A DNA stretch of 64,000 nucleotides from the IMG/VR virus record IMGVR_UViG_3300026097_000008, positions 90,977 through 154,976 of that record; one strand, 5' to 3'. The position numbers and the translations under genes were made by a program. Origin of the DNA: a virus. Positions 4,037 through 24,430 of the stretch are shown in pieces (the stretch's first letter is position 1; each line of letters begins with the position of its first letter). The notes beneath the pieces are model-generated. The model had not been told where the DNA came from. It ran no database searches and saw only the letters and a list, made by a program, of their open reading frames with translations.

Positions 4037-4365
4037 TATGTTATCTCCACATAGCTTACTACTACGTCAACTGCATCATCTACACTCGACCTTACAAGCA
4101 ATCTATTACTAGGTGCAAGTACTAGTTTTTCACCTGTACTCACTGCTCTCAAACTAGTTCCTGCTGGTAAAATACTATCTTTTAGATAGTAGCCGCTAAC
4201 ACTAGTATCGTCTTCAACTAACACATCTACGTAAACAAACTGATTTGTTAGATTTGTAAAACTTAAACCAAGTATTGTGACTCTGGTTGTCGGTAGTGTT
4301 TCGTAAATTAACACAGGTACTGTACCACAATTTTTTATTACTGTATTTTTTAATAGTGTTGCCAT
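4036..4365 (-). CDS. Small beta-rich virion protein (109 aa), paralogue of 12950..13306
   Basis: Shares 'LPAGxS/T...EK/RxVLxxxD/N...VxSY[VL]E[IV]' with the 118-aa ORF. Confidence 0.7.
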   Translation of the reverse strand: MATLLKNTVIKNCGTVPVLIYETLPTTRVTILGLSFTNLTNQFVYVDVLVEDDTSVSGYYLKDSILPAGTSLRAVSTGEKLVLAPSNRLLVRSSVDDAVDVVVSYVEIT

Positions 4366-4368
4366 TTT

Positions 4369-7300
4369 CTATCCAAATATTAAAACTTTTTCAATTGCTA
4401 TATCTTCTGCATCTTGGAAGCTGATACCACCTGATGCTCCAGCAACAGAAACCCAATTAGTCCCGTCAAATAATTCAACCCTTGCATCATCAGTATTGAA
4501 ACGTATCATTCCTGTAACACCTGTTGGTCTAGTGACATTACCCCCAACTGGTAAAACTACTCCATAAGTTCCGTCTATGTTTACATAACCATCACCAGTC
4601 GTTGTGAAAGTAGTAATAGCATCTTCTACAGTATTAGTTATAGTATTGTCTTTAAATCCAAAATTCTCAAAAACAACTCTTCCAGTCCCTTGTGCAGATA
4701 ATTGCAAATCAGTGTTTGTTGTAGTAGTACTTATCACATTACCATCTACTTCAATGTCATCTACGGTTACTCTATTCGCATTAAATCTAGACGAATCTAT
4801 ATCTGCTACTGCTACTCCGTCAATATAAAATCTTATGACGTTGTCATTTGCTCCGGGAGTAAGTTCTGCCGTAATACGAGTATTTCCGTCTAAATCTTGT
4901 AATCCATTTAGCCGTATCCAATTAGTGCCGTCGTATCCTTCAAATTGTGCAGTGTCACTGTTAAATCTAATTTGTCCTGCATTTGCGCTTGGTCGATCTC
5001 CTGTACCCCCTACAGGTAATTTGAGTGCTCCTGTACTATCTATATTAACTAATCCTGTACCAGGTGATAATGTCATATCACCTGTGGTTGTAATAGTACT
5101 GTCTTTTATCGAAAAATCGTCAATAACAATAGATCCGGTTCCTGCTGCACGTAGTTCTAGATCAGAATTAGAAATTGTTGTTGTAATAAAATTATCATCT
5201 ATCAGGATATCGCCAGTCGTAAAGTTATTCGCTTGAATAGTACCAGCACTTTCTATATCATTTACAGTCAACGTACCGGTTATATTTACATTATTACCAA
5301 CGGTTATGTTTCCTGTGACTTCTAAATTTTGAGACATTTGAACATCATTACTTGGTACATTTACTACACCAGACCCGTTCGCACGTAATATTAGATCTGT
5401 ATCTGCTGTTATTGTTTCTACAACATTGTTGTCAATTAATACAGTGTTATTTGTAAAACTGTCTGCTGTTATCAAACCTGTACTAATTATATCAACTGTA
5501 GTAGTTGCTCCGTTTACTGTAAAGTCATTGTTTACTGTAAAATCGTTAGTCGGTATCAGTATTTTACCTGTGCCATTTGCTCGTAGTTCAAGATCAGTAT
5601 TTGAGGATGTAGTAGTGATAAAATTATCGTCTACTAGTATTTCTTCAAACTGTGCAGAAGCACCTACATTAATGTCCTGTTCTACTGTGACATCGCCAGA
5701 CACACTTGTGTCTCCTGTCTGGTCAAAATCTCCTACAAGTGTCACTGTACCTGTAATATTTGTATTAGCAAGAGTTGCGGTTCCATCAACATTAAGATCT
5801 TGATCTATTTGTACATCGTTACTAGGCACAACAACGTTGCCTGAGCCGTTTGCTCGTAAATCCAAATCAGCGTTTGAATCTGTTGTTGTAATGTAATTTT
5901 GTGTAATTTTTATGCCGTCAATGTCTGCTTCATTAACATATATATTACTCCAAGTTTTTGATGCACTACCAAGATTATATGTTGAAGTTAAACTAGGTAA
6001 TAAGTCACTGTCTATACCTGCAACAATTTGTATTGTATCACTAGGGTCATTACCTACAGTAATATTACCCCCAATAGTCACATTTCCTGTGACATCAAGA
6101 TCACCTGTGATATTGACATTATTATTAAGATTGATTATGTCACTACTTGCAGTAAAGTTTACGTCTCCTGACAAGCTTTCTATAGTATTACCACTTATTC
6201 TAAGATTACCAGTATCTATTCTTTCGCCGCTTACAAATGTAGTATCGCCGCCTGTGGTAAATGTTGCACCAGTAGTTAGGTCTATGTTTAGAGCACTTGC
6301 AACAAAGTTTACAGTTCCGTCATCTTGATTTACATAGAATAAATCACCTACTCTAAAATCACCTTTGTGGTCAACACTGTTATAGCGTATTTTTGCACTA
6401 TTAGATTCTACTACTTCATTTTCTTGTATAACTGTAGCTGCGTCATTTGTGACTTCTTTACCATTTCCGATATATGCTAAATTTTGTCCTATAGCATATA
6501 CAATCACGCCGTCGCCGTCGCCTACTAATCCAAAATTTCCGTAAACAGATGCAGAGCCGATCATGCGCATTTCAGCGCCGAAGTCGCGTTTGTCTATGTT
6601 GAGTATTTCTGTGGCTGTTTCTGTGCCGTCACTTATACTTTGTGGAGTAGTATCAAAACCGTCTAAATCATCGAACTTGCCTGCGATACTGATTACATCT
6701 CCATCAACTGCTGCAATAGTTCCTGTAACAACAGTTGAGCTATCAGTTGATGTAAATGTAACTGTTGCACCTTCAGTAAATGTTCCGCTAGTTCCGCCTA
6801 AACGTATATGCGTTTGTCCTGCACTTTTTAAACCTAAATTACTATTATACGCATACAAACTTCTATTTGCAAAATACGTAAAGCTGTTTAGCCATTCAAT
6901 ACGTACACCGTTTGTAGCTACAACACCATCTACACCAGGTACAATAAATGTGACACTATGGAACAGCATACTTGCTTCTTTAGAATTTGCTGTAGCATAT
7001 GAACCGTCTATGTATGCTCCTTTACCTGCGTCACCTGAATTAAATCCTCTTGGATCTTCTGCTGTAGTTGTGCTACCTGCTGTAATTACTGTAACATTTC
7101 TAATATAAGGAGAACGTGTAGTGACTTCAAAGTCTGTTGCGAAACGGAAAGCATATCCGTTGTTAGGGTATACTTTATTTCCATTACTACAGCTAAATGT
7201 TAGATTTGACACAAATACACTATGACCTACATAGCTATCGTGTGCTGCATCTAAATCTATTGTTAGCACACCAGTAGTGTTATCATAAGTTGCATTGTTT

Positions 7301-12135: not shown

Positions 12136-12143
12136 TATTTATA
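12136..12143 (-). promoter_or_regulatory. gp55-type late promoter (TATAAATA)
   Basis: Exact T4 late consensus, followed by AAGGAG RBS and ATG. Confidence 0.75.
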
Positions 12144-14358: not shown

Positions 14359-14844
14359 TTAGATTGCTGTAAGAATAAGCACGTTTTCAGCAGAGTCGTT
14401 ATCAACATACCAAGTATACTGGTTGTCGTCGAACCCTGTAATCTTACGTCCTGAAATTTTCTTTACAAAGACTTGAGTTCCTGAATCAGTTCCTACAAAT
14501 CCACGTAGTACCATTTCGTTATTACCAATGCCCGACGACCCGTCATCATCCACAAGTTTACATACTCCTACGCCGTTAGCTTCTGAATATACTTTGAATC
14601 TACGAGCACCTTTTTGTTGTAAAATATAGCAACTGTTTGGTCCATCATCTTGCACATCTACCGCTGCTGTGCTTGAAACTTTAGCTTTGTACACTGGAAT
14701 GTTATATCCTTTTTGACGATCTGTGCTTGCAGATGTAGTATCAAATCCGTGGATATTACGGCCGTCTCCTGTATCAGGGTATCCTGATGTGCTTGTTGTT
14801 GATCCTAGTGGACCGAAGTTCTTTTTACCTAGTGGTCTTCCCAT
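14359..14844 (-). CDS. Hypothetical late/virion protein (161 aa)
   Basis: Strong RBS AAGGAG and its own late promoter; first gene of the left-arm structural cluster. Confidence 0.7.
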   Translation of the reverse strand: MGRPLGKKNFGPLGSTTSTSGYPDTGDGRNIHGFDTTSASTDRQKGYNIPVYKAKVSSTAAVDVQDDGPNSCYILQQKGARRFKVYSEANGVGVCKLVDDDGSSGIGNNEMVLRGFVGTDSGTQVFVKKISGRKITGFDDNQYTWYVDNDSAENVLILTAI

Positions 14845-14954: not shown

Positions 14955-14987
14955 AAAAAAGCCCGACACAGTTAAGCATCGGGCTTT
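14955..14987 (-). terminator. Rho-independent terminator
   Basis: GCCCGAUGC-loop-GUGUCGGGC followed by UUUUUU on the minus strand. Confidence 0.8.
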
Positions 14988-14995
14988 ATAAAAAA

Positions 14996-15198
14996 GTGGG
15001 TGAAGGACTTGGGTTTACCTCCAACTAAGCGCCTAGATACCTTTCATCGTTAACACTTAGAACCTTGCTCTGTCTAGTATGACAGTGTGCGTACTCCTAG
15101 TCTCCTAAGTCTACGCCGGGCACTACCCCTAACAAGTGCGCTTATCCTCTCTAGAAACAGGATTATTAGCGCCAACCCTTGTAACAACGTCTTGCTAC
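14996..15198 (-). ncRNA. Candidate stand-alone structured ncRNA (~200 nt), family unknown
   Basis: No ORF; bounded by a sigma70-like promoter and a terminator; at least six consecutive hairpins with G-U pairs on the minus strand. Confidence 0.65.
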
Positions 15199-15205
15199 AG
15201 TAATA

Positions 15206-15233
15206 ATAATAACATCACTGCAACAAATGTCAA
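15206..15233 (-). promoter_or_regulatory. Sigma70-type promoter (TTGACA-16 nt-TATTAT, extended -10 TG)
   Basis: Minus strand TTGACAtttgttgcagtgaTGtTATTAT, immediately after the capsid terminator. Confidence 0.7.
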
Positions 15234-15255
15234 CCACTTTTTTTAAAAAAGTCAT

Positions 15256-15281
15256 AAAAAAAGGCCCCGTAGGGCCTTTTT
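15256..15281 (-). terminator. Rho-independent terminator after major capsid gene (bidirectional form)
   Basis: A7-GGCCC-CGTA-GGGCC-T5. Confidence 0.85.
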
Positions 15282-15304
15282 CTTGTTGTCGTTCTAAGTT
15301 AAAC

Positions 15305-16474
15305 TTAGCTGAATGACAAGTTCCCAGTTGTAACTGTGATCTCGTCTAGGTAGTCAGCTGCATTACCTAGTGACGATGCTGTGTTTGATAGCTCAACATA
15401 ACCATAACGTGTCATGAATGATACGACTGGCTCAAATGTTGATGGATCTAGTACAACACCACTGCTCATCAATGGAATGTATGGGCAGTAGAACGCTGCT
15501 GCGTCTGATTCTGAAGTACCTTTGTACCCAACAAGAATGTTGTCATCAGATGCATATGTGTTTACATACACTTTCATTGCATTGTTCAATGTACCAACCA
15601 TCTTAGTGTTAGTTGGTGCTTCGAATGTACCTTCTGTTGTACGTGCAAACGCTGAAGTAGTTGCTGACTGTAGGATTGTTAACACTGTTGGTGAAACAAC
15701 TGCCCAATTACCAGCACCACGACGTGTACGCTGTGCGATACGGTTTGCTGCGCGGTTCATAAGAACTGCTAGAGCAGCATGCTCGTCGCCAACGAATGTT
15801 GCAGTACCACTTACTGCTGCCTGATCGTATGTATCAGTTGCACCAGCTAGTGTGAATAGTGAAGCAAGTACTTCTTGGTCGATTTCAGCAGTAATCTCTT
15901 GAGCAAGTGCTGCCATGATTTCTGCTTCTACGTCGATGCCGTGCTGCGACTGAGCGTCTTGTGCAGACTCAAAAGTCCAACGTGCGCTTAGTTTACGAGT
16001 CTTAGCTTCAACTGTTTGCTTCAAGATTTGAATGCTTAGTCTGTTTCCAGCTGCACCTTCTAGTGCTGCTGTTGCATCAGCTTTAGCAGTTGTAGCATTA
16101 CCCGAGTATGCTTCTGCAATCTTGAATGGGCTTAGAGCCTCTTCGCCTGCTACTGCGCCGCTTGCGTCTGAGCCAGCTGTGTCCGAATAACGAACACGTA
16201 ATGTGTGGATTTGACCCACAGGACCAGTCATAGGCTGAACACCTACAAGCTCGTTTGCAATGACTGTTGGCATTACACGACGAATAACTGGAAGAATAAC
16301 ACGGTTAAGTGTTGCGATATTACCGGCAGAGGTAGCACCAGCTGTAGCAGTCTCTGCGAGATACGAGCGAGTATTCTCTAGAGTAGTTGCCATAACAGAT
16401 TTCTTTGTGCCTTGTAGGCCTTCAAGTAGAGCTGTTTTGGTGTCCTGCCAGCGACTTTCTAGTAGTTCTGACAT
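15305..16474 (-). CDS. gp23: Major capsid protein (T4 gp23 family)
   Basis: Family motifs 'RRVMPTVIANELVGVQPMTGPVGQI', 'VEAKTRKLSARWTFESAQD', 'AFYCPYIPL', 'FMTRYG'; follows the scaffold gene. Confidence 0.97.
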   Translation of the reverse strand: MSELLESRWQDTKTALLEGLQGTKKSVMATTLENTRSYLAETATAGATSAGNIATLNRVILPVIRRVMPTVIANELVGVQPMTGPVGQIHTLRVRYSDTAGSDASGAVAGEEALSPFKIAEAYSGNATTAKADATAALEGAAGNRLSIQILKQTVEAKTRKLSARWTFESAQDAQSQHGIDVEAEIMAALAQEITAEIDQEVLASLFTLAGATDTYDQAAVSGTATFVGDEHAALAVLMNRAANRIAQRTRRGAGNWAVVSPTVLTILQSATTSAFARTTEGTFEAPTNTKMVGTLNNAMKVYVNTYASDDNILVGYKGTSESDAAAFYCPYIPLMSSGVVLDPSTFEPVVSFMTRYGYVELSNTASSLGNAADYLDEITVTTGNLSFS

Positions 16475-24405: not shown

Positions 24406-24430
24406 TATAAATACTTGTACAATGTATTTA
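24406..24430. promoter_or_regulatory. Face-to-face late promoters for gp26 (+, TATAAATA 24406-24413) and tape measure (-, TAAATA 24425-24430)
   Basis: Both boxes lie in the 74-bp gap between the divergent genes. Confidence 0.65.

Follow-up and report, generated by a model that had tools for sequence, protein, structure and literature searches.

A manA-family RNA gene, probably free-standing, behind the major capsid gene of an uncultured jumbo phage

Directly behind the major capsid gene of an uncultured phage lies a short interval with a promoter and a terminator of its own, which raises the question of what RNA is made there, and whether that RNA serves the gene that follows or acts by itself. 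The interval was found in a stretch of 64,000 nucleotides (hereafter the window), the last 64 kb of IMG/VR record IMGVR_UViG_3300026097_000008. The record is 154,976 bases long with a CheckV completeness of 44%, so that the whole genome should measure about 350 kb. Among cultured phages, the closest capsid genes belong to jumbo phages of about 350 kb, with Vibrio phage 2.275.O at the top (71.5% DNA identity), followed by the 121Q/PBECO4 group (about 68%). Genes for a prohead protease, a scaffold-like protein, and a baseplate wedge protein are found nearby, and DNA sequencing runs containing the stretch carry the labels marine plankton, marine, saltern, and aquaculture. The virus is a jumbo phage, uncultured, of marine or salt-marsh origin, and its T4-type capsid is of the Rak2/121Q type.

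An initial annotation of the locus had placed a capsid terminator, a promoter, a body of about 200 nt, and a second terminator on the minus strand, and all four lie where it put them. Its expected 5' end near 15198 agrees with the start near 15199 that is predicted from the position of the promoter. Its description of the body as free of ORFs is only roughly true, as two mechanical ORFs, 37 and 29 codons long, overlap with the unit. The features of the locus are as follows.

15305-16474, minus strand: major capsid protein gene, Gp23 family (Pfam PF07068, E 2.4e-101), the upstream neighbour of the unit
15283-15256, minus strand: intrinsic terminator of the capsid gene (12-bp stem, 4-nt loop, T run)
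15233-15206, minus strand: sigma-70-type promoter, TTGACA-16-TATTAT with TG-extended -10 (11 of 12 matches)
15197-14993, minus strand: manA-family RNA, Rfam RF01745 (cmscan; about 205 nt, helices P1-P9)
14987-14958, minus strand: intrinsic terminator of the manA unit (12-bp stem with 6 G-C pairs, 6-nt loop)
14947-14939, minus strand: GATAAATAC, T4-late-promoter-like motif (TATAAATA type, by motif likeness), for the downstream gene
14925-14842, minus strand: freshwater-2 RNA, Rfam RF02980 (cmscan, 73.1 bits against a cut-off of 49.9, model positions 1-84)
14359-14844, minus strand: conserved 161-aa gene (ORF; protein beginning MGRP)

The body of the unit belongs to a known family. A cmscan search of the whole window against Rfam 15, a check proposed in the initial annotation, returned two matches above the curated cut-offs, namely manA and freshwater-2. 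The manA match scores 78.6 bits against a cut-off of 55.2 (E 2.6e-18), and covers the RF01745 model fully and untruncated, from position 1 to 192 of 192. A covariance model built from related phages (R2, described below) matches 14992-15201 with 117 bits and finds nothing else in the window; the whole record holds one manA and one freshwater-2. When the manA consensus is transferred to the window RNA, 50 of its 52 pairs are standard, and the unconstrained minimum free energy fold (-64.8 kcal/mol) contains the same helices, with a z-score that by itself is modest (-2.19). The consensus helices, all on the minus strand, take the following form in the window RNA.

P1: UAGCAA/UUGUUA
P2, the closing helix: GGGU/ACCC
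P3: UCCUGU/AGAGGA within CG/CG
P4: CUUGUU/AGCAAG
P5: GGG/CCC
P6: GCGUA/UACGC, with a GAGA (GNRA) loop
P7: CUGUC/GACAG
P8: CUAAGUG/CGCUUAG
P9: GGAGG/CCUUC

The layout is that of the consensus: a 5' hairpin, the closing helix, the P3 hairpin, an inner junction of three hairpins, and two 3' hairpins. Every hairpin listed in the initial annotation turns out to be a manA helix, with P4 and P5 overlooked, and its suggestion that an ACCC near the 3' end pairs with a 5' GGGU describes P2. Its comparison of the 3' end with the T-arm and acceptor strand of a tRNA is not supported, since this segment consists of the 3' strands of P9 and P2 in the manA fold. The window RNA is thus a member of the manA family and no new kind of RNA.

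The family was described in 2010 by Weinberg et al. from marine metagenomes, T4-like cyanophages, and two gamma-proteobacteria, and was rated cis-regulatory, a probable riboswitch, commonly found in 5' UTRs (PMC2864571). The window RNA shares with it the nine helices, the GNRA loop on P6, an origin in marine phages, and complementarity between loops L5 and L7 (UAGU/ACUA in the window, UGGU/ACCA in the consensus). It differs in having a lengthened P6, and in its host, a jumbo phage of about 350 kb with a Rak2/121Q-type capsid rather than a T4-like cyanophage. It differs also in context: it ends in its own terminator, and this terminator, a late-promoter motif, and a separate leader intervene before the next gene, where the family label would have a 5' UTR. 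Membership stands, because the label concerns context, which is outside the model; the description "5' UTR, cis-regulatory" does not fit the window member, given its own terminator and the separate promoter of the next gene.

That label, which Rfam applies too, together with an aptamer-like fold, a terminator, and a gene on the same strand in the classic layout, suggests a reading in which the window RNA is a riboswitch-type leader whose ligand would choose between stopping at the terminator (14958-14987) and reading on into the 161-aa gene. We consider this reading unlikely. A riboswitch expression platform would be expected to overlap or compete with its aptamer; in the window, the terminator neither overlaps the manA fold nor has a predicted pairing that competes with it. 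In the ensemble, the pairing probability of its 5' arm sums to 11.6 of 12 nt for its own 3' arm and to 0 for manA, so that no anti-terminator is predicted. The stem is followed by the tail TTTTCTCTTTT, and the T run reaches about 14948.

Comparison with related phages supplied further evidence. More than 595 capsid relatives were found in IMG/VR, and the best 80, at 80-93% identity, were taken for analysis together with their flanks. The RF01745 model finds full-length manA in the records of 18 of these 80, only 4 of them above the cut-off. An alignment made by MAFFT (A1), and RNAalifold applied to another (A2), recovered only 22 pairs, and the window structure mapped onto A2 gave 68% pairing owing to register shifts. 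Since these alignments were inadequate, a clade covariance model, R1, was followed by a second, R2, built from realigned hits. R2 identifies 25 copies, the window and 24 of the best 80 relatives, of which 22 are complete (21 of those in the 24 relatives) and three are truncated where the contig stops. No record has more than one copy, and every copy lies downstream of the capsid gene, on the capsid strand. About 34 further relatives have a readable interval from the capsid gene to the next gene without manA. Present in roughly 40% of assessable relatives, manA is therefore an accessory element.

The fold is conserved by compensatory substitution. In the R2 alignment of 23 distinct sequences, which is fitted to the model and therefore favours the structure, standard pairs occupy 80.8% of cells against 62.0% in shuffles, a value reached in 0 of 500 shuffles. 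Both sides of the pair change in compensation in 45 of 59 base pairs, the outcome of an alignment of the interval downstream of gp23 that the initial annotation had proposed. If the 3' partners are slid by one to three columns, pairing falls to 35-47%. Independent minimum free energy folds of many single variants show the same architecture.

Counts of flanking signals use the 20 distinct complete copies that remain after removal of exact duplicates. A promoter with (G)GTTGAC, 16-17 nt, TGn, and a TATATT-type -10 element precedes all 20, and is kept in some relatives that have other genes between capsid and manA. A terminator follows 19 of the 20, directly in 17 (2-10 nt behind manA where the scan located it) and behind a tRNA gene in two. 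In the latter (L020 at 4366-4439, L029 at 4499-4573), a tRNA-Gly(UCC) starts 5 nt after manA and the terminator comes after the tRNA; manA and tRNA would form one transcript in these phages, with RNase P making the 3' end of manA. The single copy without a terminator (L005) runs into a late-promoter motif and an ORF, an arrangement that counts in favour of a riboswitch leader. Such a leader is hard to reconcile with a tRNA gene placed between aptamer and terminator, and with the exchange of terminators, as three near-identical manA variants (L003, L021, L065) carry three unrelated terminator stems.

The gene downstream, moreover, appears to have its own means of expression. The late promoter of phage T4 is TATAAATA. 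In most relatives a motif of the ATAAATAC type lies about 70-105 nt upstream of the conserved start codon of the MGRP gene, whether manA is present or absent. Further late-promoter-like motifs of the form TATAAATA[CT] occur in the window at 12143 and 20313 on the minus strand and at 24406 and 62796 on the plus strand; an RBS and ATG follow those at 12143, 24406, and 62796, and the first of these precedes the 1186-aa baseplate-wedge ORF. Right behind the motif of the MGRP gene begins the freshwater-2 RNA, which in the window is a 5' leader that ends in AAGGAGAAAACAAATG and holds the RBS and ATG of the gene. Rfam matches freshwater-2 in all three relatives that were scanned, two without manA (L007, L069) and one with it (L020), and in two of the three the match is above the cut-off. 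A search of a limited literature set found no paper on freshwater-2, and the 161-aa protein has no match in Pfam, in PHROG, or, by tblastn, in cultured phages. In nine relatives without manA, the MGRP gene with its motif and leader comes only about 160-190 nt after the capsid gene. A late-type promoter motif and leader that intervene, and that keep a similar spacing in relatives without manA, argue that manA does not regulate the MGRP gene in cis. Because the downstream gene has this motif and leader of its own, manA appears to be a separate cassette of promoter, RNA, and terminator in a variable slot, and no riboswitch leader.

The slot itself is a hot spot for insertion. Small ORFs between capsid and MGRP genes differ from relative to relative, most behind a TAAATA-type motif of their own, and inserts occupy the first 300-750 nt or so past the capsid gene in L004, L014, L035, L041, L054, L056, L068, L079, L081, L018, L038, L071, and L072. 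By eye, the insert in L038 has the look of an IscU-type iron-sulfur scaffold protein. L069 has in the manA slot, at about 4230-4560, a different structured, ORF-free stretch of about 300 nt, with the same promoter type and a TGTTATATT-type -10 element in front, and a 3' hairpin (GGAGG...CCUCC) like P9 of manA. Neither R2 (at E up to 1) nor Rfam (at E up to 0.001) matches this stretch, which may be a manA relative that has diverged or become larger. In the structural-gene region of the window, three more sigma-70-like promoters (22190-22161, 31124-31096, and 32013-31984, all on the minus strand), with TTGAC and TGn-TAnnnT or TATAAT, may mark other early units or other units read by host polymerase.

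Three cultured cyanophages, with one manA each, allow the same comparison at greater distance. In Prochlorococcus phage P-HM1 (NC_015280), manA (112740-112927, 186 bits) lies directly behind gp23, and the order is that of the window: the gp23 terminator, overlapping a TTGACA, then TGcTATAAT, manA, and a weak terminator-like hairpin. The annotated hypothetical protein PHM1_121 (112705-112881) overlaps this manA almost entirely and is probably a mis-annotation. In S-CREM1 (OP535465), manA is set flush between tRNA-Leu and tRNA-Asn within a tRNA array, a position that speaks against a riboswitch leader. In P-SSM2 (NC_006883), a perfect promoter, TTGACA-16-TGcTATAAT, precedes manA, purL starts 16 nt past it with no terminator between, and a terminator comes only after purL. 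The strong sigma-70-type promoter directly upstream is thus a property of the window manA and of those of P-HM1 and P-SSM2 alike. The P-SSM2 copy stands in a true leader context and is a point in favour of the riboswitch reading; it makes a cis role possible elsewhere in the family. Throughout the three cyanophages and the jumbo phage clade, manA heads a transcription unit in which the follower may be a terminator, a tRNA, or an ORF, and a self-contained RNA module fits this variable follower better than does a gene-specific switch.

Such comparisons depend on structure-aware searches. Among 50,697 cultured phage records, blastn with the region found short chance hits only, and blastn with the manA of S-CREM1 found only itself; the family is therefore too diverged for search by sequence only. 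A search with RF01745 found no match in five cultured jumbo phages (Vibrio 2.275.O, Sinorhizobium Phosso, Escherichia SHEFM2K, Erwinia Kaldavass, and Yersinia fHe-Yen9-04), a result that does not imply absence, since the prefilter also missed clear copies in two relatives (L005, L012).

A second alternative dispenses with the promoter: the RNA would be a small RNA derived from a 3' UTR, cut from a late read-through transcript of gp23. Its position would suit such an origin, since in the window and in P-HM1 alike the RNA comes immediately behind the late gene with the highest transcription; so would the abundance of capsid contigs in the RNA data. Six metatranscriptomes hold about 9% (0.09) of the sampled words of a 2.2-kb stretch around the locus, a share too small for a habitat to be named, and four of the six runs were mapped. 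Three runs from three studies yield whole short contigs inside the RNA body, at 15004-15181 (177 nt), at 15004-15160 (157 nt, one difference), and at 15033-15122 and 15110-15191 (90 nt and 88 nt). Depth is zero or near zero at 15188-15335, across the promoter and the spacer with the capsid terminator, and zero at 14374-14817, in the body of the downstream ORF, gaps that carry no evidential weight. As hints of a discrete RNA the contigs are weak to moderate; they are blind to starts, ends, strand, and level, and DNA may be present in RNA libraries. Against a read-through origin stand the strong terminator between the capsid gene and the RNA, and the promoter found in every distinct complete copy, even where genes separate manA from the capsid gene. 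We regard this origin as quite improbable.

Poorer still are the prospects of the tRNA-like mimic or decoy suggested in the initial annotation, whose 3' end would stand in for a T-arm and acceptor stem and could be a substrate for CCA addition. Behind the 3' hairpin there is indeed a strand whose partner lies in the 5' region, and manA adjoins tRNA genes in two relatives and in S-CREM1, contexts in which manA and tRNAs may share processing enzymes. That strand, however, is part of P2, which closes a six-way architecture and forms no acceptor stem, and the loop of P9, at 11-12 nt, is variable and lacks a T-loop motif. ARAGORN finds no tRNA or tmRNA gene in the whole window, in keeping with the judgment in the initial annotation that the RNA is no canonical tRNA or tmRNA, and no Rfam tRNA or tmRNA is among 29 matches in the region at E up to 10. 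The mimic is left with very little probability. A protein sponge, also suggested in the initial annotation, is a possible role. That the unit encodes a small protein, for which mechanical ORFs such as the 37-codon TTG ORF at 15074-15187 offer candidates, is effectively refuted, as no ribosome-binding site was noted, the longest ORFs of 20 variants range from 18 to 56 codons in varying places with none conserved, and substitutions track base-pairing, not codons.

The unit is thus, quite probably, a free-standing gene for a manA-family RNA that likely acts as a folded RNA particle, with no cis regulation of its neighbour. To this extent the initial annotation is borne out in proposing, among late structural genes, a dedicated noncoding RNA gene that has a host-type promoter and ends in a terminator of its own. 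Host RNA polymerase with sigma-70 would initiate at about 15199, presumably early in infection, and transcribe about 205 nt that would fold into the nine-helix architecture; the intrinsic terminator directly behind would then stop transcription and leave a discrete RNA of roughly 240-250 nt.

What such a particle might look like is suggested by a July 2026 preprint, not yet reviewed, reporting cryo-EM of five manA RNAs, the window sequence not among them (10.64898/2026.07.01.735769). In vitro, at high concentrations of RNA and Mg, these RNAs are reported to assemble into octamers, decamers, and an icosahedral-like cage of 60 subunits and about 430 Å, all of them built from pentamers (10.64898/2026.07.01.735769). 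Contacts within the pentamers are kissing loops, either L5-L7' with L8-L9', or L5-L7' with L3-L8' and a contact between the L6 GNRA loop and a receptor (10.64898/2026.07.01.735769). The window RNA, of the same family, has the loops in question: UAGU/ACUA in L5-L7, GAGA in L6, CUAGA/UCUAG between L3 and the 3' side of P8, and a weak match of 3 bp (GGU/ACC) in L8-L9.

Two of these loop pairs, L3-L8 and L8-L9, also co-vary in the clade. Complementarity of L3 with L8 is 4.47 for cognate against 3.22 for non-cognate loops (0 of 5000 permutations), and that of L8 with L9 is 4.25 against 3.50 (8 of 5000), in tests that ignore sequence relatedness and are inflated by it. For L5-L7, co-variation in the clade is not significant (989 of 5000 permutations). 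Variants pair L8 with L9 as AGGAU/AUCCU, CUGAU/AUCAG, CAGAA/UUCUG, AAUGAUC/GAUCAUU, or GAGA/UCUC, and L3 with the 3' side of P8 as ACAGA/UCUGU, GUAAG/CUUAC, GUAGAG/CUCUAC, GCAAC/GUUGC, or UACCA/UGGUA. This co-variation is compatible with selection for assembly but is no proof of it; sequence cannot separate contacts within a molecule from those between molecules.

If the window RNA behaves as other manA RNAs are reported to do in vitro, its copies would join by loop-loop pairing into closed rings or cages, with L5-L7, L3-L8 or L8-L9, and the GNRA loop L6 as candidate contacts. Action as a free folded RNA particle, and hence in trans, is the most likely mode. A more specific proposal, that manA is an early-made building block of RNA-only rings or cages in infected cells that hold or sequester a host or phage component, is offered tentatively and is, in our view, unlikely. 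That manA directly follows the major capsid gene in lineages as far apart as the jumbo phage clade and P-HM1 might reflect a link with head production.

To our knowledge, manA has been since 2010 an orphan riboswitch candidate with no ligand and no known function. We add to it a whole clade of giant phages in which it is a self-contained transcription unit, gained or lost without touching the neighbouring gene, and natural co-variation at the loops reported to mediate contacts between manA copies. The stand-alone cassette and the loop co-variation together argue for a free RNA particle as the functional form and for a second look at the cis-regulatory label. A stand-alone gene for manA also fits the preprint's account of RNA-only rings and cages, and cultured systems with comparable layouts exist in P-HM1 (gp23, promoter, manA) and S-CREM1 (tRNA array).

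Among known systems, terminating riboswitches, like the window unit, place an intrinsic terminator between a structured RNA and a same-strand gene; the window unit differs from them in having no competing helix, an interchangeable terminator, and a separate promoter for the gene. Phage T4 encodes stable RNAs other than tRNAs, rnaC and rnaD, of unknown function and linked to tRNA genes. By description only, this linkage resembles that of manA within or beside tRNA genes in S-CREM1 and the two relatives with tRNA-Gly, whereas the window copy lies outside any tRNA cluster. The large structured RNAs ROOL, GOLLD, and OLE are associated with phages and tRNAs. No Rfam match to any of these three families was found in the region at E up to 10. 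They are alike to manA in outline, with an ornate protein-free fold, a gene of their own, often near phage tRNA genes, and assembly into homo-oligomers; manA, at about 205 nt, is far smaller. RNA-only multimers of all three have been reported (10.64898/2026.07.01.735769). A further comparison is with the manA RNAs seen by cryo-EM, which are of the same family, whose contact loops (L5-L7', L8-L9' or L3-L8', and the L6 GNRA loop) are present in the window RNA, and whose L3-L8 and L8-L9 contacts have, in the window's clade, co-varying counterparts known here from sequence alone.
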